DNA of 64,000 bases from the NCBI RefSeq assembly GCF_003019035.1, contig NZ_CP027448.1, one strand, 5' to 3'. Within the stretch, counting starts at the first letter, position 1. Each line of letters begins with the position of its first letter. Below are positions 37,459-60,274 of this stretch, piece by piece. The notes beneath the pieces are model-generated. The model was not told the DNA's origin. It saw only the letters and a list, made by a program, of their open reading frames with translations, and searched no databases. A program made the position numbers and the translations under genes. This DNA comes from Escherichia coli. Lineage in GTDB: Bacteria > Pseudomonadota > Gammaproteobacteria > Enterobacterales > Enterobacteriaceae.

Positions 37459-37968
37459 ATGAAAAAATGGATGTTAGCCATCTGCTTGATGTTTATAAAT
37501 GAGATCTGCCATGCCACTGATTGCTTTGATCTTGCAGGCTGGGATTACAAAATAGATCCTGATTTACTGAGAGCAATATCATGGAAAGAATCCCGTTACC
37601 GGGTTAATGCCATCGGTATTAATCCGGTAACGGGATATGGCAGCGGACTGATGCAGGTAGATTCCCAGCATTTTAACGAACTGGCCCGCTACGGAATTAA
37701 GCCAGAACATCTGACAACAGATCCCTGCATGAACATTTATACCGGTGCTTATTATCTGGCAATAGCATTTAAAAAATGGGGCGTCACCTGGGAGGCCGTT
37801 GGTGCATACAATGCAGGATTCAGGAAATCCGAACGCCAGAACCAGAGACGTCTTGCCTACGCATCAGAGGTTTACCGGATTTATACCGGGATAAAAAGCA
37901 GTAAAGGTATCCGGCTTCCGGCCACGAAGAAATCACTTCCGGAAATTAACAGCGTGCAGAACAATTAA
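37459..37968 (+). CDS. Lytic transglycosylase (gene X / orf169 / P19-like), 169 aa
   Basis: ATG at 37459: [19 protein letters not shown] signal, then ...[15 protein letters not shown]...GLMQVDSQH...AYNAG (SLT catalytic Glu-Ser and family motifs). Confidence 0.92.
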
Positions 37969-39492: not shown

Positions 39493-39513
39493 CCTGCTTT
39501 CTCCTCTCTCTGG

Positions 39514-40142
39514 TTTTCAGCCCCCATCATCTTTTGAGTTTCGGGAGCCGCGGTTTTGACGTTTTGCGGGGACCTGCCTTTTGTTCCCTCCGGTATTCAC
39601 CATCACCTTTTTGAGAACCTTCGCCGCAAGGGGCATCACTGCCACGGACGGAAACGACTGTCCGGGGGCAGACCGCAAAAGTTTTTGCCTGCTTTTGAGC
39701 AAAAAGTTTTGCGGGATGTACATTTCACCCCTGGACTGGCGGAGACGGTTGTGGCTGTATCAGCCCCCGGCGACAGGGGCTTAAACAGGTGAATGGCACC
39801 GGACAGAACAACGGGCAGGGACCCGCCGCAACGACGTGAAGCGCGGTTTGCGAAACGGCGTTGCCCCTTACATCCCGGCGGCCTTTTGCCGGGATGCCGG
39901 GAGCGCAGGCCACGGCGCGACAGAGGCGGCGCGACCGGAACGGTCGCTGCAAGCCCGGGGTTTTCACGCATCGGACCGTAGCGACAGCCCGAAACCGCGC
40001 CAGCGGGTTCGGCGGAGACTGGCAGGTGCGCCAGCAGCTGCCTGTCGGAGTCGGGCCTGACGACCGGATGCCGCCAAGCAGCCGGGAGCCGAAGGTGCGC
40101 CCGGCAGATAGGACAACACTGCAGTAGTCAGAATCAGAGCAG
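39514..40142. repeat. Frpo/ssi-like GC-rich repeat, copy 1 (candidate single-strand DNA promoter)
   Basis: 629 bp, near-identical to 44937..45565 and, over its distal two thirds, to 48264..48879. Multiple hairpins, e.g. CATCCCGGC-N8-GCCGGGATG at 39871..39896; abuts the RBS of the orf95-like gene. Confidence 0.8.
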
Positions 40143-40413
40143 AAAGAAAAAGAGAATAATCACAGGGAAGGTGATGTGATTTCTGACAGGCCATAACCAG
40201 AGAAGGCGGGGGAAAAGAACGGGCGCCGCAGGCGCGCGTTCATCCCCGTTCCTGAAGGGAAACGACCTTCCTGAAGTCAGGTTGTTCATGCCCGTACAAC
40301 ATCAGCAAGGAGAAAGGGGCTACCGGCGAACCAGCAGCCCCTTTATAAAGGCGCTTCAGTAGTCAGACCAGCATCAGTCCTGAAAAGGCGGGCCTGCGCC
40401 CGCCTCCAGGTTG

Positions 40414-40572
40414 CTACTTACCGGATTCGTAAGCCATGAAAGCCGCCACCTCCCTGTGTCCGTCTCTGTAACGAATCTCGCACAGCGATTTTCGTGTCAG
40501 ATAAGTGAATATCAACAGTGTGAGACACACGATCAACACACACCAGACAAGGGAACTTCGTGGTAGTTTCAT
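40414..40572 (-). CDS. hok: Hok/FlmA host-killing toxin, 52 aa
   Basis: Manual translation: [52 protein letters not shown]; below the ORF-track length cutoff. Confidence 0.95.
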
Positions 40573-40630
40573 GGCCTTCTTCTCCTTGCGCAAAGCGCGG
40601 TAAGAGGCTATCCTGATGTGGACTAGACAT
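40418..40630 (-). CDS. mok: Mok (modulation of killing) overlapping reading frame, 70 aa
   Basis: 70-aa [29 protein letters not shown]... overlapping hok in another frame, as in R1 parB. Confidence 0.8.
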
Positions 40631-40686
40631 AGGGATGCCTCGTGGTGGTTAATGAAAATTAACTTACTACGGGGCTATCTTCTTTC
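40621..40686 (+). ncRNA. sok: Sok antisense RNA
   Basis: Plus strand: TTGCGC (40586..91), 17 nt, TATCCT (40609..14). The transcript would then start ~40621, covering the mok start (40630) and containing the GGTTAAT-GAAA-ATTAAC hairpin. Ends are approximate. Confidence 0.6.
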
Positions 40687-40851
40687 TGCCACACAACACG
40701 GCAACAAACCACCTTCACGTCATGAGGCAGAAAGCCTCAAGCGCCGGGCACATCATAGCCCATATACCTGCACGCTGACCACACTCACTTTCCCTGAAAA
40801 TAATCCGCTCATTCAGACCGTTCACGGGAAATCCGTGTGATTGTTGCCGCA

Positions 40852-44079: not shown

Positions 44080-45565
<1,486 letters not shown>

Positions 45566-45777
45566 CAGGAAAAAGAAGAACAGTAGCAGTAGCAGTAGCA
45601 GGAACAACAACATCAGTAACAGACAAATGACAGGCATGAAGAAACAGAAGCCCCCATCAGAACGTCCGCGTAATGAAAGGGGCGGCGCGTGAGCGCGGCC
45701 CCTTTCAGCGCCACCGGCGCGCGGTCTTTTCCCGGCGCGGGCAGACGGGCATTTATCCTCCCGCCTGCCCGGCGTCT

Positions 45778-46341
45778 TCAGGCACGCAGACGAATAATCA
45801 TCGTCGGGACATCGGTATAAGCAAACGTGCCGCGCGGCAGCTCCTCGCGGACGTCAGAAAACGGTAACAGCTTCTCCTGCTGGCGTGGTCCGTTGAGACA
45901 GACGGCGACCAGCACGCCACCCGGACGCAACAGGGAAAAGGCCCGCAGGATATGCCGGATATCCTGCCCGTGGCTGAACGGCGGATTCATGATAACCCGG
46001 CTGTAATACTGCGCCGGCTGCCATTCCATGAAGTCGCCACACTGAACCCTGACACCGTTAAAATTTTCCCGCAGATACCGGACCAGCCCGCTGTTGATTT
46101 CCACCGCATCACACATGGCCCCCGGCGCGGTATCCCGAATCGCCCGCAGTATGGCCCCGGTGCCGGCAGAGGGTTCCAGAATGTGATCACGGTTGCTGAT
46201 CTCCGCCAGCATCACCAGGCGATCACAGACCGGGGCAGGAGTCACAAAAAGCTGAGATTCAGCCCGGATTTCAGCAACCGGCGCGGCGTTATCCAGCCTT
46301 GCGCGCATCAGCCGGATACGTTCTCTTAACTGACTGTGCAT
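45778..46341 (-). CDS. Orphan class-I SAM-dependent (probable N6-adenine DNA) methyltransferase, 187 aa
   Basis: Motif I ILEPSAGTGAIL followed by motif IV VIMNPPFS; no adjacent restriction gene. Confidence 0.78.
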   Translation of the reverse strand: MHSQLRERIRLMRARLDNAAPVAEIRAESQLFVTPAPVCDRLVMLAEISNRDHILEPSAGTGAILRAIRDTAPGAMCDAVEINSGLVRYLRENFNGVRVQCGDFMEWQPAQYYSRVIMNPPFSHGQDIRHILRAFSLLRPGGVLVAVCLNGPRQQEKLLPFSDVREELPRGTFAYTDVPTMIIRLRA

Positions 46342-46388
46342 GTCATTATCTCCGTCATCCCCCGGGGATTTTCCCGGGGGGATATACC

Positions 46389-47750
46389 TTATTTCTGTGG
46401 AATTTCCGTGATTTTCATGTCGGTGATATACACATTCACCAGGCGGAAATTATTGTCCATTGTGCGGCGGTAGCGGTATGCCCCGTGGTCTTCTGCTTCT
46501 GCCACACTGCGCACGGCCTTACAGTCCCGGGGCAGGGCGGCCCACTGTGCCTTTGTCATTTCCCGGAAACCTTCCCCCGGATAGTTGACTACCGGCGGAC
46601 GCTTCGCGGCCTGACTGGCGACGGCAGCCTCTTCTGCCGATGGTGCTTTGTAGTCCGTGATGCGATCGGGCGTCACTTTCATCGTGCCGCTGTACCCGAG
46701 AAAACTGTAATTTGGCGTTGTGACTGAACTCACCACCCCGTTGCTTTTGTTCACACGGATGATGGTCAGCCACTCGCCCCGGCTGAAAACCTGTCCGCCC
46801 GGCTCAAAATCCTGTGTCCGGGTAACCACGCCGCCGCTTTCGTCCAGCATGGCACGCTCATAGATCAGGCGGTTCTGATAGTGGTTAACCCAGCGTTGCT
46901 GACGCTGGATCTGCCGTTCATGACAGCGGATCGCAATTTCGCGGGCCTGCTCCGTGGTGATGATGTCATCATCCAGGGCCGACCATAACGATCGACTTCC
47001 TTCATACTGGCTTTTTTCTGCCGGGCGCGGATACGTATCCAGCGGGAAACAGGCGCTAATATGGTCATGACTGCTGATGAGTTTTGCCATATTCAGATCC
47101 AGCGATTCAGCCCGCCACATCGTCAGATATTTCTGCGACTGTGCGATGGTCTTTTCAGCCTTGCGCAAATCAGCTTCGATTTTTTTGATACGACGCCAGC
47201 GAACGTCCGGACGTTCTTTATACTTCGCGTGAAGCAGTGCCGACCGCGCGCGTTCTTCCCAGTATTCCGCACGTTCAAAGAGCATCACGGCACGTTTCAT
47301 GCCGTTTTCAATACGCTGCGCATCACGACGGGCGCGGCGTTCGCTGTGATGCCCCACAAGAATGGGCTGACCGGGCGGGATCATCGCGGCCAGTCTTTCC
47401 ACTTCATCAAGTGCCTGTGCGGATTCACTGGCCCGCTTTCCGCTGTATCCGGTAAACCGCTCCGCCCGTGCTTCCTGACGTTCAGCGAGCGTGCTGTCTT
47501 CATCCTCAATCTCTCCGGCAAGTGAGAGGAGCACGTCTTCCCGGCCCGGTGTCCAGGCTGGCGCGACAAACAGCGCCTGTTTGGGTGCCCAGCGAAAACC
47601 GGCATCATGCACTTTTTTATACGTCTCCGGGTCGAGGCGTGACGCGGCATACAGGCGCAGTTTGTTGTCATCCGGTGAGTAGGTCGCGCGGTACATCTGC
47701 ACAGGGCTGGCGGCTTCCGGGGCGGTCATGGTGATGGCTGCTAATGTCAT
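46389..47750 (-). CDS. Conserved leading-region protein, 453 aa, unknown function (recalled as DUF3560-like)
   Basis: Long uninterrupted ORF with a coiled-coil-like middle; in a block with the methyltransferase downstream of repeat 3. Confidence 0.6.
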   Translation of the reverse strand: MTLAAITMTAPEAASPVQMYRATYSPDDNKLRLYAASRLDPETYKKVHDAGFRWAPKQALFVAPAWTPGREDVLLSLAGEIEDEDSTLAERQEARAERFTGYSGKRASESAQALDEVERLAAMIPPGQPILVGHHSERRARRDAQRIENGMKRAVMLFERAEYWEERARSALLHAKYKERPDVRWRRIKKIEADLRKAEKTIAQSQKYLTMWRAESLDLNMAKLISSHDHISACFPLDTYPRPAEKSQYEGSRSLWSALDDDIITTEQAREIAIRCHERQIQRQQRWVNHYQNRLIYERAMLDESGGVVTRTQDFEPGGQVFSRGEWLTIIRVNKSNGVVSSVTTPNYSFLGYSGTMKVTPDRITDYKAPSAEEAAVASQAAKRPPVVNYPGEGFREMTKAQWAALPRDCKAVRSVAEAEDHGAYRYRRTMDNNFRLVNVYITDMKITEIPQK

Positions 47751-47801
47751 AAAATGTTCTCCTTCCGTCTGTTGCCGCCCCTCGCGGGGCGGCTCACCTC
47801 A

Positions 47802-48032
47802 TCAGTTAAAAGCGCGTTTCAGTTCGAGTGTGCGGAGCACCTGCCCGAAGGCCGTGTTTTTCATGGCGGGGATGTGTACACCACGCCCCCGGTGAAAACT
47901 CCGGGCTATGTGTCGCCCGAAGGCTTTCAGCACGGGGTCAATTTCCGGCGCGGGGATGTCTTCGCGTCTGAAACGGGGATGACGGCGGGGCTTTACAGCC
48001 GCTGCGGAAGGTGAAACAATACTTACCGTCAT
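47802..48032 (-). CDS. Hypothetical basic protein, 76 aa
   Basis: First ORF downstream of repeat 3; no recognisable motifs. Confidence 0.4.
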   Translation of the reverse strand: MTVSIVSPSAAAVKPRRHPRFRREDIPAPEIDPVLKAFGRHIARSFHRGRGVHIPAMKNTAFGQVLRTLELKRAFN

Positions 48033-48263
48033 AAATGAAACTCCTTATGACTGTTGAATGGAACCGCAGAAACTGCTCGAACAGTTTTTGCGGTGTGGAT
48101 TAAGCAGGTCCTCCCCGGCCTGCTTTTTTCATATCTGCGTCTGACGTTCTCCGGTGTTTTCCTCCTTCTGTTCCTGCGTTCTCATTACCTGCCAGCCGGA
48201 TGACTGACAGAACAAATAAATGCGTATTGCCGGAGCCTGAAATAAATCCTGATTTTTAAAGAA

Positions 48264-48879
48264 CATCACCCGTTGAGTTTCGGGAGCCGCGGTTTTGACG
48301 TTTCGCGGGAACCTGCTGCTGTATTCCCTGTGGTATGAACTTCACCCGTTTGAGAACCTTCGCCGCAAGGGGCATCACTGCCACGGCCTGACGCACCTGT
48401 CCTGGGCAGAACGCAAAATTTTTTACCGGGTTTGGGGTAAAAAATTTTGTGGGCTGTTCATTTACCCTGGACAGTCAGTGCGGCAGGTTGTGGCTGTATC
48501 AGCCCCCGGCGACAGGGACTCATACGGGTGTGTGGCACCCGGCAGGCAATGAGCAGGGACCCGCCGCAACGACGGAGAGCGCGTGCGCGAAACGGCGTTG
48601 CCCCTTACATCCCGGCGGCCTTTTGCCGGGATGCCAGGAGCGCAGGCCACGGCGCGACAGAGGCGGCGCGACCGGAACGGTCGCTGCAAGCCAGGGGGTT
48701 TCACGCATCGGACCGTAGCGGCAGCCCGAAACCGCGCCAGCGGGTTCGGCGGAGACTGGCAGGTGCGCCAGCAGCTGCCTGTCGGAGTCGGGCCTGACGA
48801 CCGGATGCCGCCAGGCAGCCGGGAGCCGAAGGTGCGCCCGGCAGACAGAACAACACTGCAGTAGTCAGAATCAGAGCAG
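48264..48879. repeat. Frpo/ssi-like GC-rich repeat, copy 3 (proximal third diverged)
   Basis: 48264..~48560 only loosely similar to copies 1/2, with shared blocks GTTGAGTTTCGGGAGCCGCGGTTTTGACGTTT and TTTGAGAACCTTCGCCGCAAGGGGCATCACTGCCACGG. From ~48560 to 48879 it is almost identical. Confidence 0.75.
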
Positions 48880-49072
48880 CAGATAAAGGAACAACAACAA
48901 CATCAGGAACAGTTCCACAACATAAGAAAGAAACACTCCTGAGTCAGACACATCACAGACGGGAAGGGTAACGGGCGACGCGCCAGCGTGGCCCGCTTCC
49001 CTTCCGGCAGGCGTCAGCCTGCCAGGGGTTTTCGCGCGGGCTGACAGGCGGCCTCCACCGCCTGCCCCTGTA

Positions 49073-49264
49073 TCACCTGTTTCTGCTGCCCTGTAAGATG
49101 TAGTGACCGCCCAGGAAAACCGCCTGCTGATTCGCCACAAAATCGCAGATTTCATCAACAATCTGCGCGGTGGTGAGCGGTTTCTGCCCCATTTCACGAC
49201 GCCGCGCATTAATCACGGCCCTGTAATTACGCAGAATTTCGCGGGTTTCTGTGCTGATATTCAT
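49073..49264 (-). CDS. Hypothetical protein, 63 aa
   Basis: ATG overlaps the stop of the upstream ORF (49261..49264), suggesting coupling. Confidence 0.45.
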   Translation of the reverse strand: MNISTETREILRNYRAVINARRREMGQKPLTTAQIVDEICDFVANQQAVFLGGHYILQGSRNR

Positions 49265-49683
49265 GACATCGTCTCCCCGTCCAGCGCCTGTAACACAACG
49301 TCCATTGCTTCGCGTTCCTCCCTGACGAATGCGTCACCGTCGCCCCCGTTCTCACTCCCGACGGCATACAGGCGCTTCATTTCACTGCCTGCCAGCGCCA
49401 TCACTTTTTCCAGCATCACCGCCGGGACTGTCACATGACGGCTGGCGCGCTTTTCTTCCATCAGTTCACGAACAACGTCGTGAACAACGCTGACATCCGC
49501 ACCATGCTCAAAGGCATCGTCCAGCCGCTGCATGACGGTTTCCAGCTCATCGTCTGCCAGACTCCAGTCCTGAGCTATGTGGCGCACATCCCCACGGGTC
49601 AGCACCACGGCAAAAACGCATTCACTGTCCGGCACGTCTGTATCCAGCACTTCGCGGATAATTTCTTTAACAGTACAGTACAT
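49261..49683 (-). CDS. Leading-region protein, 140 aa (recalled as DUF1380-like), paralogue of 51390..51824
   Basis: Shares with the other copy the pattern MY.T..E...E...[n]...L.D.E...V..RL.D...[n]..R.VTVPA..L. Confidence 0.55.
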   Translation of the reverse strand: MYCTVKEIIREVLDTDVPDSECVFAVVLTRGDVRHIAQDWSLADDELETVMQRLDDAFEHGADVSVVHDVVRELMEEKRASRHVTVPAVMLEKVMALAGSEMKRLYAVGSENGGDGDAFVREEREAMDVVLQALDGETMS

Positions 49684-49729
49684 GTTCTCGTCTCCTTTAC
49701 AGGGGCGGCATTGCCGCCCCGTCCGTTAA

Positions 49730-50155
49730 TCAGTCCAGTGCCGCGTAAATCGCGTTACATTCGGGGTGAAATTCGATGTGGCTCCACAACTGCGCATCGC
49801 GCATCCTGTACAGGTGAGTCAGTCCTGCATCACCGCTGTCGTGGTACAGCCACAACTGACGGTTAATCACAAGGGAAGTCACAATGATGCCTGCGGCATC
49901 GGCGCTGACCGTACGGTCAAACCAGTTTTCACCGTTCACCATGTGGAAACGGTCGCCATCCGGCATCATGTAACCGCCACCGTCCGGCAGGCGGATGAAG
50001 TGCCAGAATCCGCCTTCATATTCCGGCATCATTTTTTTCGCCAGCGCGTACACAGATGCCTCGGCATACAGAAAATCATTGCCAAACAGATACAGCAGAA
50101 AGGAGAGACGGTCGCATTCTTCAACATTCAGAGTGACAGGTTTCGCATACTGCAT
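49730..50155 (-). CDS. klcA: KlcA/ArdB-type antirestriction protein, 141 aa
   Basis: ATG 50155 (GGAGG SD): [93 protein letters not shown]... recognised as KlcA. Confidence 0.85.
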
Positions 50156-50537
50156 GGGATTTCCTCCGTTGTTCACATATTCCGCGACACCGGGCGGTGC
50201 CGTGCCTCCATAAAAGCCGGGCGATAAGGCGGGGATGCACAGGGCGCAAGGGAAGCCGCAGCCTGACGCACACGGCTGACGGGAGTTGGAGGGGGAGACC
50301 GCGAAATCTGAGCGGGTGAACGACCGGAAAATCACGGCAGACGGGAAGGAGGGACCGGGTGACCGCAGCGTTCATTTTACCCTTGCATCCCCGCCAGCCC
50401 GGCTAAGATGGAGGCACGGCACAGCCCGCACACGACACGGTGGCCACATAACTGAAAACCCACAAGGCCATGCCTGCATGGCCGGGTAAAGCGGAGCCGG
50501 CGGCGACTTCCTTTGTGCTCTGTCCGGGGACCGGCAG

Positions 50538-50562
50538 AAAAAAAAGCGGGGATTTTCCCCGC
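50538..50562 (-). terminator. Rho-independent terminator after ORF 50568..51344
   Basis: Minus strand: GCGGGG-AAAAT-CCCCGC followed by T8 (plus-strand A-run 50538..50545), starting 5 nt after the stop. Confidence 0.7.
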
Positions 50563-50567
50563 CATCA

Positions 50568-51344
50568 TCAGCCCCTGATTTTTGCCAGGGCATCCGCCAT
50601 GCTGCGGATTTCGGCCCGGGCTTCCCGGACAACTTCCCGCAGAACACCACGGTCAAACCTCTGGCGGGGCGGTTCATCCGGTATACGCAGCACATCGCAG
50701 GCCAGCCCACTGGACAGGATATGTTCAATACAATCGCTGACCAGATACATTTCCACCGCCGAAAAACGTGCGCCCCGGTTCAGGATGGCATCGAGCACCA
50801 CGGGCAGGTTTTCGTCGTCCTCATCGAGCCAGCAGGGGTGATCGCTTTCCTTCACGACCAGGCGAAAGCGGCGCGTCTGGCGGGTCAGTAACGTCTGACC
50901 AGTGGTGGTCAGCGCCGCCCGGATACGCCGCGTATCTTCTGCCACCCGGCAACTGACACTGCGTACCGCATCGCGCACCGCCGCAAGTACAGCCCTGATT
51001 TCGTCTTCGGTCAGCCATTCACCGGCATACGGAAAAGACACCTGCGTTCCGTCTGCCGGAAGTACCGGCAGCGACTGCCACTGACTGCCGGACAGTACAA
51101 GTTCCTCCCCGGTTCCGGTCAGTTTGTGAATGGCGGAGGCCAGGAGCGGCGGCAGTACGCCGCCGTGACGGTTTATAAGTAACGTCGCCAGCTGGGGCGC
51201 ATCCAGCCGCACGTAAATGCTGATCCAACCCGGATAGTTCGGGTTTCGCTGGTCAACATCAGTCTCTTCCGGCCAGCCCTGCGCCAGCAGCAGGTCGCGG
51301 GCGTGACGACAAATCAGTGCATTCAGCGTTGTGTTTTCGTTCAT
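50568..51344 (-). CDS. Conserved leading-region protein, 258 aa, unknown function
   Basis: Clean ORF with its own terminator; no motif recognised. Confidence 0.55.
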
Positions 51345-51389
51345 GATTAATCGTTCTCCCTGTATCGCCGCCCGGAGGCGGCGATAACA

Positions 51390-51824
51390 TCAGTCGTTTT
51401 CGTGTGTGTTGTTTTTCAGCAGGCTGCGGGTCTGATTAACCACCGCCTGACGGCGGGTGACGCATTCCGGGACGGCGAGGCCGTTATCACGGGCGGCCCA
51501 TTCACGCTTCCACAGTGCCTGTTCAGCGGTCTGAATCAGGGACGCCAGCAGTTCAGCAGGGACGGTCACCTGGCGGTTTTCACTCACGTTGCTGATAATC
51601 TCCATCGCCGCACAGGAAGAAATACCGGACTCAGTCCGCTGGTCTTCCGGGATGTCCTCCAGCCGCGCCAGGACGGTCCTGATTTCATGATCGGACAGGG
51701 AAATATCCATTCCGTCAGCGAGGGCCTGAGTTTCTTCCGGGGACCAGATAACCAGCATCAGCGGCGTGTCTCCCGGATACTGCGCTGCCAGCTCCCGGCA
51801 CAGCGTTTCGCATGTTCCGTACAT
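51390..51824 (-). CDS. Leading-region protein, 144 aa (DUF1380-like paralogue)
   Basis: See 49261..49683; MYGTCETLCRELAAQYPGDTPLMLVIW...RQVTVPAELLASLIQTAEQAL. Confidence 0.55.
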   Translation of the reverse strand: MYGTCETLCRELAAQYPGDTPLMLVIWSPEETQALADGMDISLSDHEIRTVLARLEDIPEDQRTESGISSCAAMEIISNVSENRQVTVPAELLASLIQTAEQALWKREWAARDNGLAVPECVTRRQAVVNQTRSLLKNNTHEND

Positions 51825-51837
51825 TCTCGTCTCCTTC

Positions 51838-52059
51838 TCAATCTTTGAAGCAGGAATCCAGTTCCAGAATTTCGGTATACGCCTCCATAAACAGGCGATT
51901 GGCGCGATACAGCGTCTGGCGTGTCAGGCGTTCAACAAGCACATCGGAATCAAAGCGACAGCGATGCTCCATATCGTTCAGCCTGGCCCGAAGGTCACAC
52001 ATGGTGTTGGCCACCTCCGCCACGTCGGCGCGAAGTTTTTCGTGTCCGGCATAGTTCAT
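51838..52059 (-). CDS. Hypothetical helical protein, 73 aa
   Basis: Start codon directly abuts the stop of the methylase gene (52060), so probably co-translated. Confidence 0.5.
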   Translation of the reverse strand: MNYAGHEKLRADVAEVANTMCDLRARLNDMEHRCRFDSDVLVERLTRQTLYRANRLFMEAYTEILELDSCFKD

Positions 52060-52743
52060 TTACGCAGCCTCCGGTTCAAACCAGTTATCATTCGCGGCCC
52101 CCTGCTGCATGGCCCGTTGCACGGCGGCCATTCGTTGCTGTCCGGCACGGTGATACTGTTCAAGCAGCTCGATACCGATATACCGGCGTCCGGACTGAAG
52201 GGCGACCACGCAGGTTGAGCCGCTGCCTGCAAACGGGTCCAGCACAATCGCGTTCGGATGTGTGAAGCTCTCAATCAGTGGTTGCAGGCTGGTAACGGGC
52301 TTTTCCGTCGGGTGATGGCGGTTGCCTGAATATTTCCAGCCCAGCACGTCCGGCAGCAGGTTTTGTGGCAGACGTGGACGGCCTTTTGCCAGGATGTAGG
52401 CGCATTCGTGGCGATAGCCCACATATGCGGCCTTCGATGTGTAGTTTTTGGTGAAGACCAGGTGCTCGACCACACTGAATCCCGCATTTTTCCAGGCGGC
52501 CATAAAGCGATCGACGCGGTTCCAGCCATAGAGGCTCACCATCAGCGCGTCTTTTTTCAGCACACGGTACATTTCATTACAGGCCGGTTGCAGCCATTCA
52601 TCGGTTTTATCACCCGCGATGGTACGTCCCTGACGGTCACGAAAACCGACGAGGTACGGCGGGTCAGTCAGCATGAAATCAATGGCGTTATCAGGGATAC
52701 GGGCCATAACATCGATGCAGTTACCGAGGACAAAACGGGACAT
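52060..52743 (-). CDS. Orphan DNA N6-adenine/N4-cytosine methyltransferase (beta-class), 227 aa
   Basis: Motif IV LTDPPYL near the N-terminus, motif I VLDPFAGSGSTC near the C-terminus, HPTEKP in between; no cognate endonuclease. Confidence 0.88.
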   Translation of the reverse strand: MSRFVLGNCIDVMARIPDNAIDFMLTDPPYLVGFRDRQGRTIAGDKTDEWLQPACNEMYRVLKKDALMVSLYGWNRVDRFMAAWKNAGFSVVEHLVFTKNYTSKAAYVGYRHECAYILAKGRPRLPQNLLPDVLGWKYSGNRHHPTEKPVTSLQPLIESFTHPNAIVLDPFAGSGSTCVVALQSGRRYIGIELLEQYHRAGQQRMAAVQRAMQQGAANDNWFEPEAA

Positions 52744-53085
52744 AACAACGCTCCTTCTTTCACAGAGGGCACCGGGAGGGCCCCCTGTGGTGCCCGTTCC
52801 CCGCTGCCTGTGGGCTGTTCACCGCGTCCGGTAACTGGTCAGGCCGACCGTGGAATACCGCAGCCGTCGTCTTTTTGACGGCAAGGTTATGCCGCGAAAG
52901 CGGCTTGAAGGGCGTTCATCAGAAAAGGGCGACGGGCTGGCGTACACTGTCACCGACGCCAGCCGGGAGCGGTAAAAGCGACCGTTCCGTGCCCGCCGGA
53001 CGCGGGACACTGACCACAGGCAGCGTTCCTGCCGCGCCGCGTCAGCCGGCGCAGTAAAAAGAGGAGCACGGCGACATCCTTTGTC

Positions 53086-53114
53086 GGAAAAGAAACGGGC
53101 GGTTGCCCGCCCGT
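53086..53114 (-). terminator. Terminator hairpin after ORF 53127..54053
   Basis: Minus strand ACGGGCGG-GCAA-CCGCCCGT followed by TTCTTTTCC. Confidence 0.55.
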
Positions 53115-53126
53115 CTCCGTCATACT

Positions 53127-54053
53127 TCATCCGCCATAATGCGCCACATTGTCGACTATCCACGCAGGTCCGGTGACCTCCGGCAGCTCATCGTCATCTG
53201 TCGGGGAAGACCATTCCTGTTCCCCCCACAGAACATCAACAAGCTCTCCACGCTCATATCGCTGCCAGCCACAGAAATTGCAGCCCTGTTCGGCATACCA
53301 GTGCTCCAGCGTGCAGCCGAAACGGCGGCTTAATTCTGCAACAACGTCGCTTTCCGGCTGACACCACGGCGTGTCAAAATCCACCTGAATGAAGTTTTCT
53401 CCCTGACGGCCGATATTCAGGTCATACCCACAAGGCCACTTCACGCCATACCGTTCCGTATACCAGTGATATGCAGAAGGAACACCGTTCAGAACACCAC
53501 CGTTAAAGCCGTTCACTTCAACATCCAGGCGGGTCGGCAGAACCGTCAGCAGGTCAAACGGCATGGTTTTTTCCGGCACTACGTTGTCACACAGACGGTT
53601 CCACCACACCGATACATCCTCGTTACTCCAGAAGCCACACCAGTCACCTCTTTTTGCGGTGAAAAGTGCGGTGATGGTATCCCTGACATCGTCCGGTAAT
53701 CCTTCCCAGCGACGCTGTCCAGTACCGCTCTGCAGCCAGAGTTCATGCAGCATCAGGCAGTTTTGCTCATCCAGCAGTACACCGTCCTGCAGATATGTCA
53801 GCCAGCGGGTGAACGCGATATTCTCCGGCGATACAACGCCACGCCCGGCAGCCGTCAGTCCGGGGCATGGTTCAAACCGCACATCTTCAGTGGTCTGCAG
53901 AAGTCCGGCACTTCCGGCCAGAAACAGCTGAATACCTTCATTTGTGGCGCGGCGATAAAGCGGTGTGACTGCGCCGCTGGCCAGTCGTTTAATCTCAGCG
54001 ATCTGTGCCGGTTCACCAGAAAAATACATACGATTCGAGCACCAGTTTGGCAT
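53127..54053 (-). CDS. Conserved leading-region protein, 308 aa (recalled as DUF1281-like)
   Basis: ATG 54053 with GAGGAG SD: MPNWCSNRMYFSGEPAQIAEIKRLASGAV...; the upstream extension in the track is unlikely. Confidence 0.6.
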   Translation of the reverse strand: MPNWCSNRMYFSGEPAQIAEIKRLASGAVTPLYRRATNEGIQLFLAGSAGLLQTTEDVRFEPCPGLTAAGRGVVSPENIAFTRWLTYLQDGVLLDEQNCLMLHELWLQSGTGQRRWEGLPDDVRDTITALFTAKRGDWCGFWSNEDVSVWWNRLCDNVVPEKTMPFDLLTVLPTRLDVEVNGFNGGVLNGVPSAYHWYTERYGVKWPCGYDLNIGRQGENFIQVDFDTPWCQPESDVVAELSRRFGCTLEHWYAEQGCNFCGWQRYERGELVDVLWGEQEWSSPTDDDELPEVTGPAWIVDNVAHYGG

Positions 54054-54695: not shown

Positions 54696-55129
54696 GTACC
54701 GTTTATCACCGTCCGGCTGACCCTTCAGGCGATGACAGTTACGTGCGACCGTTGTTTGCCGATCGTTGCCAGGCCGGTTTTCCTTCGCCTGCCACTGATT
54801 ATGCTGAGCAGGAACTGGATCTGAACAGCTATTGCATCAGCAGACCTGCAGCCACCTTCTTTCTGCGCGCCAGCGGTGAATCGATGAACCAGGCTGACGT
54901 GCAGAATGGTGATCTGCTGGTAGTGGACAGGGCCGAAAAACCACAACACGGGGACATCGTTATCGCTGAGATCGACGGTGAGTTCACCGTCAAACGACTG
55001 CTGTTGCGCCCACGCCCGGCACTGGAGCCGGTTTCAGACAGCCCGGAGTTCCGCACACTGTATCCGGAAAACATCTGTATTTTTGGTGTTGTCACTCACG
55101 TGATACACAGGACGCGGGAGTTACGCTGA
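54692..55129 (+). CDS. impA: ImpA, UmuD-family S24 self-cleaving protein, 145 aa
   Basis: ...GFPSPATDY..., catalytic Ser in RASGESM and Lys in FTVKRL. Confidence 0.9.
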   Translation: MSTVYHRPADPSGDDSYVRPLFADRCQAGFPSPATDYAEQELDLNSYCISRPAATFFLRASGESMNQADVQNGDLLVVDRAEKPQHGDIVIAEIDGEFTVKRLLLRPRPALEPVSDSPEFRTLYPENICIFGVVTHVIHRTRELR

Positions 55130-55256
55130 TGTTTACACTGGCTGATATCAACAGTTTCTACGCCTCATGTGAAAAAGTTTTCCGCCCGGACCTTCGCAAC
55201 GAACCGGTCATCGTACTCAGCAATAACGATGGCTGTGTGATCGCACGCAGCCCAGA
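55129..55256 (+). pseudogene. impB: impB (UmuC-family Y-polymerase) 5' fragment, codons 1-42
   Basis: MFTLADINSFYASCEKVFRPDLRNEPVIVLSNNDGCVIARSP, then the frame is lost at 55257. Confidence 0.9.
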
Positions 55257-55301
55257 TTATGTGGAATTGCAAGTAACGTTGTAGTGCTGATGAGGAAAAT
55301 T

Positions 55302-57530
55302 TTATCTGACTACAATATTGATATCGTTTTCCGCAACAATCAGCATCACGGCAGGTAAACCCTCCACACGCATTTTCTGGTGTAATTTTTTGATTAAATT
55401 ATCATCTTCATTACTGGCTTTTGCGGAAAAGCCTTGTGGATGGGAGTGCCATTCGCCAACATAATCGACAACACGAGCGGTCAACTGGTGAACCCGTTCT
55501 AATGCTTCTTGTTGTCCCGCTTCTCCCCGGACAAAGGAGGCTGGAGAGGATTTACTGTCGATAGGTTCAGGGAGCACGTCAACCAGAATAATCGTTTTGT
55601 TCTTAAAATCTGTTATGCCAACAATTGCACCTCCTGTTTCATTAGGCAGTGCCTGTAAGCGGGTGTGCTGCAATTTTTGCGCTAAGCCCTGGTCATATTT
55701 AACAACCCATTCGCCAGAAATTATAGATACCACGGAATAGAGTTCAATTTCATGTGCATCCATCGCGCCTGATATTTCATCAGATACCCAGATACACAAT
55801 CGAGCATTTCCTTTGAGTGCAGTCTGGCGAAGTTGGCGTGAGAGGATACCGGCATGAACATGAATACATTCACTGGACATACGTACAGAAATATCCCGAC
55901 ATCCACCACCGACCCAACGATCGCCATAATTGTGCTGTAGGTGAGTACTTCCCCACTCACTGCTCAAAATTGCCCGATAGTATTGCCCCTCAATTGCATC
56001 AATTCGGCATTGTCTGTCTACATCCTCCATTAACATCACGCTAGACTGACCCGATGGAGTCAGAAACAGGCTAACTATTCTGGGTATATCATCTTTTAAC
56101 ACTAGAGTCCTCGGCACCTCAAAGGTGGTACTGACATCCACAACTAAGTCTGCCTCATTCATTGCCTTAGCAATATCATCATCGTCATCAAGAATACTTT
56201 TATGGATCGCCTGAGGGAGGGGCTCATGCGGATAAATAGATTTGGCAATATGCTGAATAATATGGGGTTTTGAGACTCCAATATGACAATCAAACCCAAT
56301 ATGGCGAGACAAATTATGTGGAAGAAGCCGATCTGGATCAATAAAAGTCCATGTCCCCCACCCCATTCGAATCCAAATATCAGCCAATGTACTACCAAGA
56401 GCGCCAACTCCAGCTAAAATACCTCGAAAAGCTGCACTCTCTGAATCAACAGCAGATATGTCTCTCGCATGTGTGGCCTTCATAGCCGAACGTATTTCAA
56501 CTGGTAAAAGCGGTAATTGTCGCCACTTGGTACTAATTGATCCGCCAAGAAGCCGTACGCGATGCTGTACTCCTCGCTCATTTTTTGGCGCCAGCATATC
56601 TAGTGCAGTGGCAAGTTCACCGAGTGAACTTTGCACAACATAGCCCATCACATCCGTACGTTCTGTTTCTCCGTTTCTTAGACGGGGGATCCAAAGCAGG
56701 ATAAGTAAGCCTTCTCCTTTACCAGACGTTGGGCGGATACCATCACTTGGTATTGCTTCATAAACAGCGTCAGTTAGTGGTTTTAGGAGCTCACTTCCCC
56801 ATTCATTAAGTTGTTCTTCTAATTTTCCCAGATTATCCGGGTATGTAGCCACCGTAGAAACATCGACAGGAGGAACAGCAATAGTTAATAAGCGAAATGG
56901 CTTAACGCTTGAGGTATCTTGTTCTGGTACAGCCCTTAAAATAATCGGTCGCCCCTCACTGACCATCTGGAGACTGAGCTTATTGTCAGTCGCGTGATGA
57001 TAATCGGGGTAATTGGCTGGCAAAATGAGCTGATAGGGACTCAAATAAAAAAGTTGCTCAAGTGGCTGATCTTCTCGATGTAGATGCAGTTCGGCCGATT
57101 CTCTAAGCCACCAAAAAATGCGCTCAAGGAATCTCTCGGGGGTCCAACTGCGCTCAACTGCGCTCCAGGAGGCCTCATATAGGCAAAGAATTCGTGGTGA
57201 GCCAGGTTCTCCAGCATGCTGGTGAGAAAGAACAGGGAAATCTTTCCGCAATGCATGAACCAAGATAGGTATGCTTGATTTGGGATTGACCTCAATAGCC
57301 AATCGTTCTTTACGACGAATACGGGCTTGATTACCAGAAGCCACAGTCCCATCAGCAGCATCAATGATTAGATATTCCGAGCGGTTATCATTTATTTCAG
57401 AAAATCGTAATTCTCTGACTGTGACGTAAGGATGATTCTCGCATGCTTTAAGCAGCGAAATCGTTTGTGGATAAAGGCTATCGCGCCCCGATGAATCGAG
57501 GCGCTCACCCAATTCGAAATATTCGATCAT
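55302..57530 (-). CDS. E2-like / E1 (ThiF) adenylation / JAB deubiquitinase-like triple-fusion protein, 742 aa (Cap2+Cap3-like)
   Basis: E2-like LSHQHAGEPGSPRILC(116)LYE. E1 GILAGVGALGS (G374-x-G-x-x-G379), FIDPDRLLPHNLSRH, ADLVVDVSTTFE, GGGC(544)RD. JAB NE(631)TGGAIVG and EWH(695)SH(697)PQGFSAKAS(706)NED(709). Confidence 0.8.
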   Translation of the reverse strand: MIEYFELGERLDSSGRDSLYPQTISLLKACENHPYVTVRELRFSEINDNRSEYLIIDAADGTVASGNQARIRRKERLAIEVNPKSSIPILVHALRKDFPVLSHQHAGEPGSPRILCLYEASWSAVERSWTPERFLERIFWWLRESAELHLHREDQPLEQLFYLSPYQLILPANYPDYHHATDNKLSLQMVSEGRPIILRAVPEQDTSSVKPFRLLTIAVPPVDVSTVATYPDNLGKLEEQLNEWGSELLKPLTDAVYEAIPSDGIRPTSGKGEGLLILLWIPRLRNGETERTDVMGYVVQSSLGELATALDMLAPKNERGVQHRVRLLGGSISTKWRQLPLLPVEIRSAMKATHARDISAVDSESAAFRGILAGVGALGSTLADIWIRMGWGTWTFIDPDRLLPHNLSRHIGFDCHIGVSKPHIIQHIAKSIYPHEPLPQAIHKSILDDDDDIAKAMNEADLVVDVSTTFEVPRTLVLKDDIPRIVSLFLTPSGQSSVMLMEDVDRQCRIDAIEGQYYRAILSSEWGSTHLQHNYGDRWVGGGCRDISVRMSSECIHVHAGILSRQLRQTALKGNARLCIWVSDEISGAMDAHEIELYSVVSIISGEWVVKYDQGLAQKLQHTRLQALPNETGGAIVGITDFKNKTIILVDVLPEPIDSKSSPASFVRGEAGQQEALERVHQLTARVVDYVGEWHSHPQGFSAKASNEDDNLIKKLHQKMRVEGLPAVMLIVAENDINIVVR

Positions 57531-58708
57531 TGGTTTGATACACCTGCCCTAGGAGCGGCGGCCGTAGCAGCACTTACCGCAGCTGAAACAGCACCAACAA
57601 TAGCGGGTATTAACTTCCCGTCTCCAGCCACTTCAAATTCAAGGAACGCTGTATCTTTAAGATCCCCCGTACAGCTAAACCAACCATCAACACTGTCCAG
57701 AATATCCTCATACTCACGCTTAGCCCGGATGCACGGTGGATCATAATCATCATCAAGTATCTGATTGCTACTCGATACAATTGTTGCCCCGGAACGAGCC
57801 TGACCTAAAGCATTACGGGCCGCATCACAAACTTCAGCATTCTCCCCCCATTGTGACCAGCTATCATAGGAAAGTGAATGCCATGAACAATGATGCGGTG
57901 TGAGGAGAAGATCATATTCTAGTGCCTCAGCATTGCTTTTGTAACGATCCCATAATCGCTCCCAGATGAGAACTTCTGCGTCTCCACCTAATAGAAAGTG
58001 CATAGGATTACGGGAATATGCAGAGGGCAGTATTTTCATGTTCATGATGATACTGGATTCGTTTTTAGAAAGAGCTTCTTCCAAATATTCATCATCTTCA
58101 TGTGGTGCGGGCGCCAGAAGCTGTGCGGAGAACACTTCTGAAATTTGCCCGTCAATTCTGGTGAATGTATCTCCAGCTTTGATAAGAATGGCACTCAGAT
58201 CATCTGTTTTGCCATTAATATCTTCACCCATGATAAGGATTCGATTACCGCTAGATGCATAACCATGTTCCCGCCAGTATTTTACTCGGCGCCGTGCTTC
58301 TGTATTAAATGCCTGAGCATCTTCGCAAAGTGTGTGACTTTTGGAACGACGCCGAAAAATCAATGGTGATGACCACAATTCTCGAATAATGATACGCTTT
58401 TCTGAACGTTTCACATCGTCATCTGGATAATCTTCAGGACGGCCCAGCCAGAAATGTTTACGCAGGCCACCGCAATGATCCTGATCGGGATGACTGAGCA
58501 TAAAAACATCAATAAAGGGACGATCTTTTTCATCATACTTCAATCTGCTACGTAATGCCGAGGCAACATCAGGTGTGTCATCATTGGGGTTATCAGCAGC
58601 AGAGCGAATATGTACATCAATCAGAATGGATGTGCCCCGGGTGTCGGCCAAACGTACCAGTGTCATATCACCGTTGCCGACTTGGAAAAAAGTAATTTTG
58701 GCTGCCAT
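57527..58708 (-). CDS. Metallo-beta-lactamase-fold hydrolase, ComEC/Rec2-like subtype, 393 aa, with Ala/Gly-rich C-terminal tail
   Basis: FFQVGNGDMTLV, LSHPDQDHCGG, LLGGDAE and LTPHHCS follow the ComEC-type MBL motif order. The AGGAG SD favours ATG at 58708 over 58714. The stop overlaps the next gene's start (ATGA at 57527..57530). Confidence 0.78.
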   Translation of the reverse strand: MAAKITFFQVGNGDMTLVRLADTRGTSILIDVHIRSAADNPNDDTPDVASALRSRLKYDEKDRPFIDVFMLSHPDQDHCGGLRKHFWLGRPEDYPDDDVKRSEKRIIIRELWSSPLIFRRRSKSHTLCEDAQAFNTEARRRVKYWREHGYASSGNRILIMGEDINGKTDDLSAILIKAGDTFTRIDGQISEVFSAQLLAPAPHEDDEYLEEALSKNESSIIMNMKILPSAYSRNPMHFLLGGDAEVLIWERLWDRYKSNAEALEYDLLLTPHHCSWHSLSYDSWSQWGENAEVCDAARNALGQARSGATIVSSSNQILDDDYDPPCIRAKREYEDILDSVDGWFSCTGDLKDTAFLEFEVAGDGKLIPAIVGAVSAAVSAATAAAPRAGVSNQ

Positions 58709-58767
58709 CGACATCTCCTTTAGGGATACGAAAGATTGAGGTTAAGAGCATCTATTGCTAAGATACA

Positions 58768-58842: not shown

Positions 58843-59697
58843 ATGAGTGATAAAATGGTGAGAACTGGTCATTGGAGCCAAGAAAGACGGCTTGAATTCA
58901 TCGATTTTCGCCTACTGTGGGAAGGTCGGCTTAACCGTGCAGATCTCACGACATTTTTCAGAATTTCAGTTCCGCAAGCCTCATTAGATTTGGCAAAATA
59001 TCAAGAAGTTGCGCCAAACAACATGGTGTATGATCGAACTCAGAAGGCTTACATTACGACTCCTGATTTCAAACCTGTTTTTACAAGCTTTGACAGTAAT
59101 CATTACCTGAATGAACTACTTGGGCGAGAAAATGAAATAGTGGATCCTGATGATAGTTTCATTGGGTGGGTACCCCCGGTAGCCAGCCTTCCTCTCCCTG
59201 CCAGGAAAGTACAACCTGAAATATTGATTGATTTAATTCGAGCCATGCAAAGAAAACAGGCTTTGGTTGTTGATTATCGCTCAATGACTAATGAACCAGC
59301 AATTCGTACGCTATACCCAACAGCATTTGCACATGATGGGCATCGGTGGCATGTTCGTGCTTATTGTTTTAAGTCTACAATGTTTAAAGATTTTGTTCTT
59401 GGTAGGTTTTTTAAAATCGTTGAATTTGTTTCCCCACCGACATCAATTCCACAAGATGTGGACTGGAATACATTTATTGACGTGGTAATAGGTCCAAACC
59501 CTAACTACGATATGAATAAACGGCTATCTATTGAACATGATTATCAAATGGTAAAAGGAGAAGCAAAAATCCACATACGTAAAGCGCAATTATATTATCT
59601 TAATCGTCGATTAAATTTGGATGTAAATAGCGATGGTTCAATAGATGACAAACAGCAGATCATCATGCTCAGAATAGACGAGTCTAAAACCTATTAA
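58843..59697 (+). CDS. wHTH-WYL-domain transcriptional regulator (CapW/BrxR-like), 284 aa
   Basis: N-terminal RRLEFIDFRLLWEGRLNRADLTTFFRISVPQASLDLAKYQ (wHTH); WYL-type core ALVVDYRSMTNEPAIRTLYPTAFAHDGHRWHVRAYCFKSTMFKDFVLGRF. Confidence 0.78.
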   Translation: MSDKMVRTGHWSQERRLEFIDFRLLWEGRLNRADLTTFFRISVPQASLDLAKYQEVAPNNMVYDRTQKAYITTPDFKPVFTSFDSNHYLNELLGRENEIVDPDDSFIGWVPPVASLPLPARKVQPEILIDLIRAMQRKQALVVDYRSMTNEPAIRTLYPTAFAHDGHRWHVRAYCFKSTMFKDFVLGRFFKIVEFVSPPTSIPQDVDWNTFIDVVIGPNPNYDMNKRLSIEHDYQMVKGEAKIHIRKAQLYYLNRRLNLDVNSDGSIDDKQQIIMLRIDESKTY

Positions 59698-59709
59698 GGG
59701 AATATTTAT

Positions 59710-60228
59710 ATGAATGCGAATGATGTTAACAAACGGAATAAAGAATGGATGATTGTAATCATTATTATCTATCTTTTTATTTTGTTATGTATAGCAACAT
59801 ACGCTATTGGGGCTATGTCTCTAGGTTGGTTACCAACACCTTACGCACCATTAAGGGTGCCACTGATGTGCGGAGCAATTGCCTATATAGGTGGTTGTTT
59901 ATATTGTTTTCGTGCAATTTACCTCAATAAATGTATTAGAAAACAATGGGATCCAGATTGGCATGTATGGTATTTCATTCGCCCACTGACCAGTACAATC
60001 GCAGGTGCTATCAGTTATTTATTCCTTAAGGCGGGGTTGTTAGTTTTGGAGTCTAGTTCCAATGTAGGAGCTAGTGAAATGGGTTTCTTTGCGCTGGCAT
60101 TTATTGCTGGTTTTAACGTCGATAAATTTGTCGCAAAAATCGAGGAAGTTGCAAAGGCTGTCTGGGGTATTGAAAAAACTCGAAGCTCGACTAATAATGA
60201 TGCGAAAAATTCGGAAAAAAAAGAATAG
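59710..60228 (+). CDS. Four-TM membrane protein with charged C-terminal helix, 172 aa
   Basis: Hydrophobic segments ~13-35, 50-70, 85-108 and 122-137; starts 13 nt after the WYL gene stop; no motif recognised. Confidence 0.6.
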   Translation: MNANDVNKRNKEWMIVIIIIYLFILLCIATYAIGAMSLGWLPTPYAPLRVPLMCGAIAYIGGCLYCFRAIYLNKCIRKQWDPDWHVWYFIRPLTSTIAGAISYLFLKAGLLVLESSSNVGASEMGFFALAFIAGFNVDKFVAKIEEVAKAVWGIEKTRSSTNNDAKNSEKKE

Positions 60229-60274
60229 TCTGGATGTATTTAAATTAAAATGAAATTAGTGCTGAGCTATTTTA

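Follow-up and report, generated by a model that had tools for sequence, protein, structure and literature searches.

The closest described relatives of the locus reported here, a block at positions 45778-54053 of a 64,000-nucleotide (nt) stretch of Escherichia coli DNA (contig NZ_CP027448.1 of assembly GCF_003019035.1; "the window" denotes the whole stretch), are the leading regions of plasmid F and of the incompatibility group I1 (IncI1) plasmid pESBL, for which the methylase, the anti-restriction gene, the promoters, and the operon structure were published between 2015 and 2026. In F, Frpo1 and Frpo2 drive early expression as class 1 single-stranded DNA (ssDNA) promoters (PMC9849209); class 2 and class 3 promoters were mapped in pESBL by 5′ rapid amplification of cDNA ends, and transconjugants show induction of the homologous operons of F (PMC12672017). 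Yamaichi et al. (PMC4288162) gave the name M.EcoGIX to the pESBL gene at 54782-55465. M.EcoGIX acts on single strands only, methylating adenine within the loosely defined motif SAY, and is silent in vegetative growth (PMC7736820); its deletion reduces pESBL transfer into EcoGIII and EcoRI recipients (PMC4288162). For F, a preprint (10.64898/2026.01.09.698686) reports that when ssp2, the promoter of yfgB, is deleted, transfer drops 5-fold into EcoKI recipients, 36-fold into EcoGIII recipients, and at least 21-fold into the wild strains HS, B, and ED1a (ED1a falling below detection); it also reports that complementary-strand synthesis halts at the ssp2 hairpin until host UvrD has resolved the structure, a stall that prolongs zygotic induction.

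A preliminary description of the block, made from the letters alone, had read it as an anti-restriction and anti-defense island of a plasmid leading region. Our analysis supports that reading, and orthologs of its methylase and of its KlcA protein are those tested by experiment in pESBL or F. We consider it probable (roughly 85%) that the block is the half of the conserved leading region distal to the origin of transfer (oriT) in an F/R100-like plasmid of incompatibility group F (IncF). It is the canonical IncF/IncI1 leading region, already known, and not a new island.

Prevalence and position of the block

Prevalence was assessed by megablast of 45778-54053 against PLSDB, in which at least 5000 plasmids match the block and at least 3083 records hold at least 80% of it as a single piece. 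Among the matches listed, identity ranges from 90 to 99%, and the plasmids are mostly conjugative IncF plasmids of Escherichia, Klebsiella, Salmonella, and Shigella. The encoded proteins are 91 to 98% identical to their orthologs in F and the IncI1 plasmid pESBL, the exception being YubE (77% to pESBL). F and pESBL-EA11 have a common gene order, namely (DUF1281), methylase, 73-amino-acid (73-aa) protein, DUF1380, 258-aa protein, KlcA, DUF1380, 63-aa protein, and ssb, and in both this run adjoins dinI-umuDC or partition genes.

The F-type nick sequence, GTGGGGTGT joined to GGTGCTTTT at the nick, is matched exactly at 37359-37376 on the plus strand; this oriT nick site lies outside the block and is an exact match to GTGGGGTGTGGTGCTTTT (0.05 chance matches expected). 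Since the nick sequence is on the plus strand, the plus strand is the transferred strand; it enters 5′ end first, from about 37368 to higher coordinates, and serves as template for all block genes. On this match we assign the coordinates above 37368 to the leading region, which places the block 8.4 to 16.7 kb from the nick. The genes flanking the nick also fit an oriT (SLT transglycosylase at 37366-37968, DUF932, hok/sok, psiA, psiB, a ParB-like gene, DUF905, and ssb). A sok antitoxin RNA at 40570-40746 on the minus strand (Rfam RF01794, 88.9 bits) marks hok/sok (flm) between psiA and the first of three Frpo-type repeats (copies A, B, and C, described below).

All nine open reading frames (ORFs) that the preliminary description had placed in the block are present on the minus strand where it put them, and the exact nick sequence on the plus strand backs its view that every gene is templated by the transferred strand. 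Its gene list was right for these nine and left out two conserved small ORFs (76 and 63 aa); its layout overlooked three structured noncoding regions that split the block into operons, as well as an antisense RNA at 48027-48128. The 11 ORFs all begin at an ATG with a GGAG-type ribosome-binding site in front and are annotated in RefSeq relatives, and in a 96.6%-identical plasmid the RefSeq annotation corresponds one to one with the window ORFs. There are only three long intergenic gaps in the block (1040, 412, and 383 nt), every other gap being 51 nt or shorter, and all three coincide with strongly folding ssDNA blocks.

To define those blocks, we folded the transferred strand from 37 to 56 kb as 300-nt pieces of ssDNA, following Wen et al. 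both in method and in the threshold of -75 kcal/mol (scan mean, -50.4 kcal/mol; standard deviation, 13.1). Exactly five intergenic blocks fall below the threshold (39.5-40.2, 44.9-45.6, 48.25-48.9, 50.15-50.47, and 52.7-53.1 kb), all of them upstream of operons, and no sigma-70-type site was found on the minus strand between 44.9 and 54.5 kb. A sixth sub-threshold block, at 45.6-46.0 kb, extends into the 3′ end of the gene for a 187-aa methyltransferase. Here a stretch of the transferred strand (45574-45990, plus strand) that takes in the end of that gene and the spacer between it and Frpo copy B reaches -90.9 kcal/mol on folding (z = -4.05); the structure is possibly the terminator of the operon behind Frpo copy C or an extension of copy B.

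From their sequence, we assign the three long gaps to the class 1 (Frpo), class 2 (ssp2), and class 3 (ssp3) ssDNA promoter hairpins, with promoter activity predicted by orthology to F and pESBL. The block would thus be read as three operons templated by the transferred strand, plus a DUF1281 gene that appears to stand alone.

The M.EcoGIX-type methylase and its operon

The first proposed operon would run from the class 3 hairpin through a methylase, YubE, a DUF1380 protein, and YchA, and would equal the F ssp3 operon. Its 227-aa methylase (52060-52743, minus strand) carries DPPY (motif IV) at residue 27, before FAGSGS (motif I) at residue 171, which is the beta-class order, and matches PF01555 N6_N4_Mtase (135.7 bits) and NCBIfam NF010253 (486 bits versus a cut-off of 244). 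It is 92% identical, over all 227 aa, to the product of the pESBL gene at 54782-55465. On these matches we identify it as the ortholog of M.EcoGIX (YfbB in R64, YfeA in F), a beta-class N6-adenine DNA methyltransferase, in agreement with the DNA methyltransferase recognized in the preliminary description; the ortholog is itself experimentally tested, and single-strand SAY specificity would carry over from it. Like the rest of the block, the gene has the transferred strand as its template, and it sits in the leading region behind the class 3 hairpin.

That hairpin region (52744-53126, plus strand; the F ssp3 equivalent) is 96 to 98% identical to the pESBL sequence upstream of M.EcoGIX and 95% identical to F. 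It folds to -109.6 kcal/mol (z = -6.3), and 22 of its 92 consensus pairs show compensatory change across six sequences. RefSeq places a "hypothetical protein" of about 100 aa here (window 52819-53163, minus strand; L001 19030-19341), which has a 4-nt overlap with the 3′ end of the DUF1281 gene and otherwise lies within the hairpin; this ORF is probably spurious, called over a noncoding element that is GC-rich and structured. At the other end, a terminator-like hairpin with a T-run (50545-50563, minus strand), directly 3′ of the 258-aa gene, marks the end of the methylase operon.

The gene for the 73-aa YubE-family protein (51838-52059, minus strand) abuts the methylase gene with a 0-nt gap. 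YubE matches phrog_4830, its syntenic homologs carry the precomputed family PF27407 YubE, and in plasmids from Serratia and other hosts it keeps its place next to the methylase, including those that have neither DUF1380 nor YchA. (We also considered YubE as a paralog of DUF905 and rejected this, the two being unrelated.) So close a pairing could mean that YubE, perhaps together with DUF1380 and YchA, is a subunit of the M.EcoGIX-type methyltransferase, and the same explanation would have the DUF3560 protein, treated below, give the 187-aa methylase its DNA binding or oligomerization. We think this unlikely, given that M.EcoGIX alone on expression vectors methylates SAY in vivo (PMC7736820) and that YchA occurs without an adjacent methylase in the plasmid contigs L005 and L007.

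The klcA operon and the class 2 hairpin

The second proposed operon would consist of the class 2 hairpin, KlcA/ArdB, a DUF1380 protein, and the 63-aa ORF, equal to the F ssp2 operon. The 141-aa protein at 49730-50155 (minus strand) matches PF03230 Antirestrict at 94.1 bits (gathering score, 25) and the solved structures of KlcA (2kmg; E = 4.3e-17) and ArdB (2wj9; E = 8.9e-7), and it is 94% identical both to F YfgB and to the pESBL protein. We identify it from these matches as KlcA/ArdB, as the preliminary description had it, and its F ortholog YfgB is the protein whose promoter deletion lowers transfer. That ortholog is reported to be 93% identical to R64 ArdB (10.64898/2026.01.09.698686), and by analogy with the F and R64 proteins, the window KlcA/ArdB is predicted to block type I restriction. 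The last gene of the operon, the 63-aa ORF (49073-49264, minus strand), overlaps the stop of the gene upstream by 4 nt at its start and is 98% identical in F and pESBL; contig L009 also has a 63-aa ORF just 3′ of its antirestriction gene, a likeness of size and position only.

The class 2 region (50156-50567, plus strand; the F ssp2 equivalent) shares 97% identity with F; against pESBL, the figures are 93% for the region upstream of klcA and 91% for that upstream of ardA, a pattern of resemblance that Wen et al. describe for class 2 promoters (PMC12672017). The main stem of the window region pairs 50191-50428, with a fold of -103.7 kcal/mol (z = -5.4). We tested the pairing by covariation in eight aligned sequences, including plasmid contigs whose flanking proteins are only 25 to 39% identical, against a 74-pair consensus. 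In this alignment, 92.4% of cells are paired versus 35 to 40% when partners are slid by 1 to 3 columns, and 36 pairs show compensatory double changes versus 6 to 12 in the slid controls; none of 500 shuffles equaled the observed values. The 3′ arm holds a -35-like TTGCAT (50383-50388) and a -10-like TAAGAT (50404-50409). In the -10-like hexamer, T1, A2, and T6 are invariant in all eight sequences, and the middle AAG lies in a 3x3 internal loop. Transcription from these boxes would be expected to leave the base of the hairpin near position 50200, roughly 45 nt ahead of the klcA start codon.

Frpo repeats and the DUF3560 operon

Three direct repeats of about 640 nt, A (39513-40150), B (44936-45573), and C (48252-48887), are 94 to 97% identical over about 430 to 450 nt to whichever of F Frpo1 and Frpo2 is closer. 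Copy B, a class 1 (Frpo/ssi-type) element on the plus strand just outside the block and upstream of ssb, DUF905, the ParB-like gene, psiB, and psiA, is 96% identical to F Frpo1 and 88% to Frpo2 (451 nt), and 300 nt of it folds to -92 kcal/mol. Copy C, the Frpo-type class 1 repeat of the block itself (plus strand), is closest to F Frpo2 (94%) and folds to between -80 and -91 kcal/mol per 300 nt. That copy B is nearer Frpo1 and copy C nearest Frpo2 suggests past recombination or cassette exchange among the repeats.

Behind copy C, the third proposed operon would comprise the 76-aa ORF, the DUF3560 gene, and the 187-aa methyltransferase gene. Its first cistron (47802-48032, minus strand) encodes a basic protein (isoelectric point [pI], 11.9) with an AAGGAG ribosome-binding site and a 46% identical homolog in the pESBL leading region; a 76-aa ORF of contig L009 was compared with it and rejected as unrelated. 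The 453-aa DUF3560 protein (46389-47750, minus strand) has no meaningful match to solved structures by sequence search. By tblastn, neither F nor pESBL has DUF3560 or the 187-aa methylase; among the matches listed, the two are present in most matching IncF records. Serratia plasmids keep the pair, at 69% identity, in a position between KlcA and the ParB-like/PsiB genes. Because the operon lies between two Frpo copies, it looks like a cassette with its own Frpo, which repeat recombination could insert or excise.

The last gene of the operon (45778-46341, minus strand) encodes a 187-aa protein with EPSAGTG at residue 56 followed by NPPF at residue 119, a gamma-type motif order, and a class I S-adenosylmethionine (SAM) methyltransferase fold (Pfam MTS and Methyltransf_25). 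Among solved structures, the best match is the catalytic domain of M.TaqI (E = 1.2e-6); of the 421 aa of the M.TaqI chain, only residues 22-122 are aligned, and the 187-aa protein has no target-recognition domain. Its PHROG matches lie inside giant multidomain proteins and in "DNA methyltransferase" families. It also matches Erm/KsgA and PrmC models (E = 1e-8 to 1e-5), far below their cut-offs, and the similar scores against ribosomal RNA methylase models are the reason that we call a DNA substrate only likely. The EPSAGTG and NPPF motifs named in the preliminary description are confirmed, and its label of DNA methyltransferase is plausible. A link to a named phage anti-restriction methylase was dropped, since tblastn against phages returned small hypothetical proteins (about 34% identity), mostly from Vibrio and Pseudomonas phages.

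The subunit explanation raised above for YubE draws on this operon too: the DUF3560/small-methylase pair persists in Serratia, and the 187-aa enzyme aligns to the catalytic domain of M.TaqI alone. Counting against it, the apparent DUF3560-methylase fusions come from short, read-assembled contigs of 2 to 3 kb, and we treated them as probable frameshift artifacts.

The start of the 76-aa ORF, both its ribosome-binding site and its ATG, is covered by an antisense RNA, AS-pc01 (48027-48128, plus strand; Rfam RF02875, 89.7 bits versus a gathering score of 79). This RNA has its own promoter-like site on the plus strand (47992-48020) and a terminator-like hairpin (48102-48125). Its template is the complementary strand, so it would be made only after conversion to double-stranded DNA (dsDNA). 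We conjecture that AS-pc01 shuts off the DUF3560 operon after this conversion.

Uncharacterized proteins of the block

Six conserved proteins are uncharacterized: DUF3560, both DUF1380 paralogs, YubE, DUF1281, and YchA. None of them matches any known anti-defense or defense family in Pfam, PHROG, or NCBIfam. Nor does any of them map to a housekeeping or plasmid maintenance family, the outcome that would have counted against the candidates named in the preliminary description.

YchA (258 aa; 50568-51344, minus strand) has no Pfam or NCBIfam family in profile searches, and sequence searches found no meaningful match to solved structures for YchA or DUF1380. The family numbers 178 representatives among 1.84 billion proteins. 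Its AlphaFold2 model is confident (predicted local distance difference test, 88.5; predicted template modeling score, 0.82), and searches with this predicted structure gave no solved or viral structural neighbor. The invariant residues (A144, R155, E166, and W172) do not suggest a catalytic motif. Four plasmid contigs carry a YchA homolog of 25 to 39% identity beside umuDC. In three of them it is the immediate upstream neighbor of KlcA or ArdA, and in the fourth a single 111-aa ORF comes between; L005 and L007 are two of these four. The distant plasmid contig L010 appears to have tandem YchA-like genes (6799-8789; 267 and 262 aa), the 267-aa one being so called by size and position only, and it carries a DUF1380 gene after the methylase and another after KlcA, as in the window.

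The two DUF1380 proteins (144 aa, pI 4.55, at 51390-51824; 140 aa, pI 4.4, at 49261-49683; both minus strand) are a real, distant pair, as the preliminary description had noticed (27% identity; pairwise E = 6e-9). PF07128 (DUF1380) matches the 144-aa protein at 176 bits and the 140-aa paralog weakly, at E = 2.9e-4, under the Pfam cut-off. The 308-aa DUF1281/Api92-like protein (53127-54053, minus strand) matches PF06924 and PF18406, as well as Api92 (PDB 2ijr; E = 1.5e-51), a structural genomics protein. Both DUF1380 paralogs and the DUF1281 protein are strongly acidic (pI 4.4 to 4.6). A hairpin-type promoter upstream of the DUF1281 gene was considered and rejected, the region folding to only -67.5 kcal/mol per 300 nt (z = -2.9).

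Most likely, we infer, the uncharacterized proteins are further entry-phase factors, whether small binding proteins, inhibitors, or methylase partners. They may also be, together with the 76-aa and 63-aa ORFs, establishment factors of another kind (host reprogrammers, helpers in ssDNA handling or priming, or mitigators of plasmid cost) that are expressed early only through shared promoters, a possibility that we take seriously while giving it somewhat less than even odds. There is a precedent next door: the leading-region ParB-like protein HerB/YfjB reprograms host transcription and blocks no defense (PMC13370423), and SSB and PsiB act on SOS and ssDNA physiology (PMC9849209); the lack of matches to anti-defense and defense families points the same way. 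Against it are the position of the distant YchA homologs, upstream of KlcA or ArdA in all four contigs if the single 111-aa ORF is allowed for, and the acidity of the DUF1380 and DUF1281 proteins, which resembles that of DNA-mimic inhibitors and is suggestive only. A more specific proposal would make YchA an undescribed entry-phase inhibitor of recipient defense or repair and, separately, DUF3560 with the 187-aa methylase a second, two-component methylation system behind its own Frpo with shut-off by AS-pc01; taken jointly, we hold it to be speculative and doubtful.

Proposed expression on entry and points against it

In the mechanism that we propose, the plus strand would enter the recipient as ssDNA, and each of the three intergenic regions would fold into a long hairpin that rebuilds -35 and -10 boxes, so that host RNA polymerase could transcribe the genes before a complementary strand exists (zygotic induction). 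The M.EcoGIX-type enzyme would then methylate SAY adenines on single strands, blunting many type II enzymes, and KlcA/ArdB would block type I restriction. Expression may be prolonged by the class 2 hairpin, which would stall complementary-strand synthesis until UvrD melts it, and conversion to dsDNA would switch the ssDNA promoters off. What the data here support directly are the identities of the genes, the strand logic, the homology of the promoters, and the stability and covariation of the hairpins.

Several observations weigh against this account. The mechanism in this plasmid is argued by orthology to F and pESBL. The spacer between the class 2 boxes is 15 nt (TTGCAT-N15-TAAGAT), which is atypical, and no convincing -35 and -10 boxes could be placed in the class 3 hairpin. 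No strong hairpin precedes the DUF1281 gene, which is not part of any of the hairpin-driven operons; in plasmid F (L004 4856-5778) it is split into two frames and is a pseudogene. Deletion of KlcA/ArdB had no detectable effect in two other plasmids, its activity depending on expression level (PMC11602122). Any entry-phase role of the DUF3560/187-aa methylase operon is putative. Finally, transposon sequencing (TnSeq) of pESBL found every listed block gene dispensable for transfer into a laboratory recipient (PMC4288162), a result that does not bear on defense-proficient recipients.

The last of these points, in which Hp8-Hp11 were fully nonessential (PMC4288162), could also indicate that part of the block is dispensable or decaying cargo kept by linkage to useful genes, as could the frameshift of DUF1281 in F and the absence of the DUF3560 operon from F and pESBL. 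We consider this very unlikely: all of the ORFs are intact with strong ribosome-binding sites, the proteins are 91 to 98% identical across IncF and IncI1 (YubE, 77%), gene order is kept down to 25 to 39% identity, and the TnSeq recipient was a permissive laboratory strain.

The block is carried by thousands of clinical IncF and IncI1 resistance plasmids, and in helping incoming DNA against restriction it would be medically relevant. What value remains to be drawn from it is narrow, namely, the six conserved uncharacterized entry proteins, above all YchA, and the DUF3560/small-methylase operon.

Inserted element beside the block

Beyond the block, an inserted module truncates umuC at 55284 (window 55129-58714). 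Its products are a 742-aa fusion of E2, ThiF (E1), and JAB (55302-57530, minus strand) and a partner of 395 aa that belongs to no Pfam family (57527-58714), and it looks like a defense module of the ubiquitin-like conjugation type. In the adjoining region (58843-63535) lie the gene of a WYL-domain regulator (58843-59697) and, on either side of a 316-aa ORF without a Pfam family, two genes for tyrosine recombinases (60275-61594 and 62483-63535); the regulator and the recombinases probably belong to the same inserted element as the E2/E1/JAB module.

Comparison with known systems

Plasmid F is one of two close counterparts of the block as a whole. Its distal operons are ssp3 (yfdA ... yffB, including YfeA) and ssp2 (yfgB ...), and the order of methylase, 73-aa protein, DUF1380, 258-aa protein, hairpin, KlcA, DUF1380, and 63-aa ORF is identical to that of the window, with promoter regions 95 to 97% identical. 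F differs in being without the third Frpo copy and its operon of 76-aa ORF, DUF3560, and 187-aa methylase, and in having a frameshifted DUF1281 gene, which is intact in the window and pESBL. The other counterpart is the leading region of pESBL and R64, which has DUF1281, M.EcoGIX (YfbB), YubE, DUF1380, YchA, KlcA, DUF1380, and the 63-aa ORF in the window order beside dinI-umuDC, with promoter regions 93 to 98% identical to those of the window, and which includes Hp8-Hp11 and both class 2 and class 3 ssDNA promoters. Unlike the window, pESBL has an IncI1 backbone with a NikB relaxase and no DUF3560 operon, and it carries ArdA behind a second class 2 promoter; the window is without ArdA.

At the level of single proteins, the 227-aa enzyme shares with M.EcoGIX/M.BceJIII (Fomenkov et al. 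2020) its 92% identity, the beta-class motif order, DPPY, and its leading-region position and orientation, and we detected no sequence-level difference between them. The same holds for KlcA of IncP plasmids and ArdB of R64, which belong to the same Pfam family as the 141-aa protein, with matches to both solved structures and no difference detected. The block also has the features of a leading-region anti-defense island, namely, early-entering DNA, a transcribable strand, anti-defense genes, and ssDNA promoters. It differs from the islands of Samuel et al. (Nature, 2024) in that no anti-CRISPR or other newly described anti-defense gene was recognized within it, and it resembles them in its leading-region site, in the use of the transferred strand as template, in its orphan methylases and anti-restriction genes beside SSB and PsiB, and in its Frpo-like promoters.

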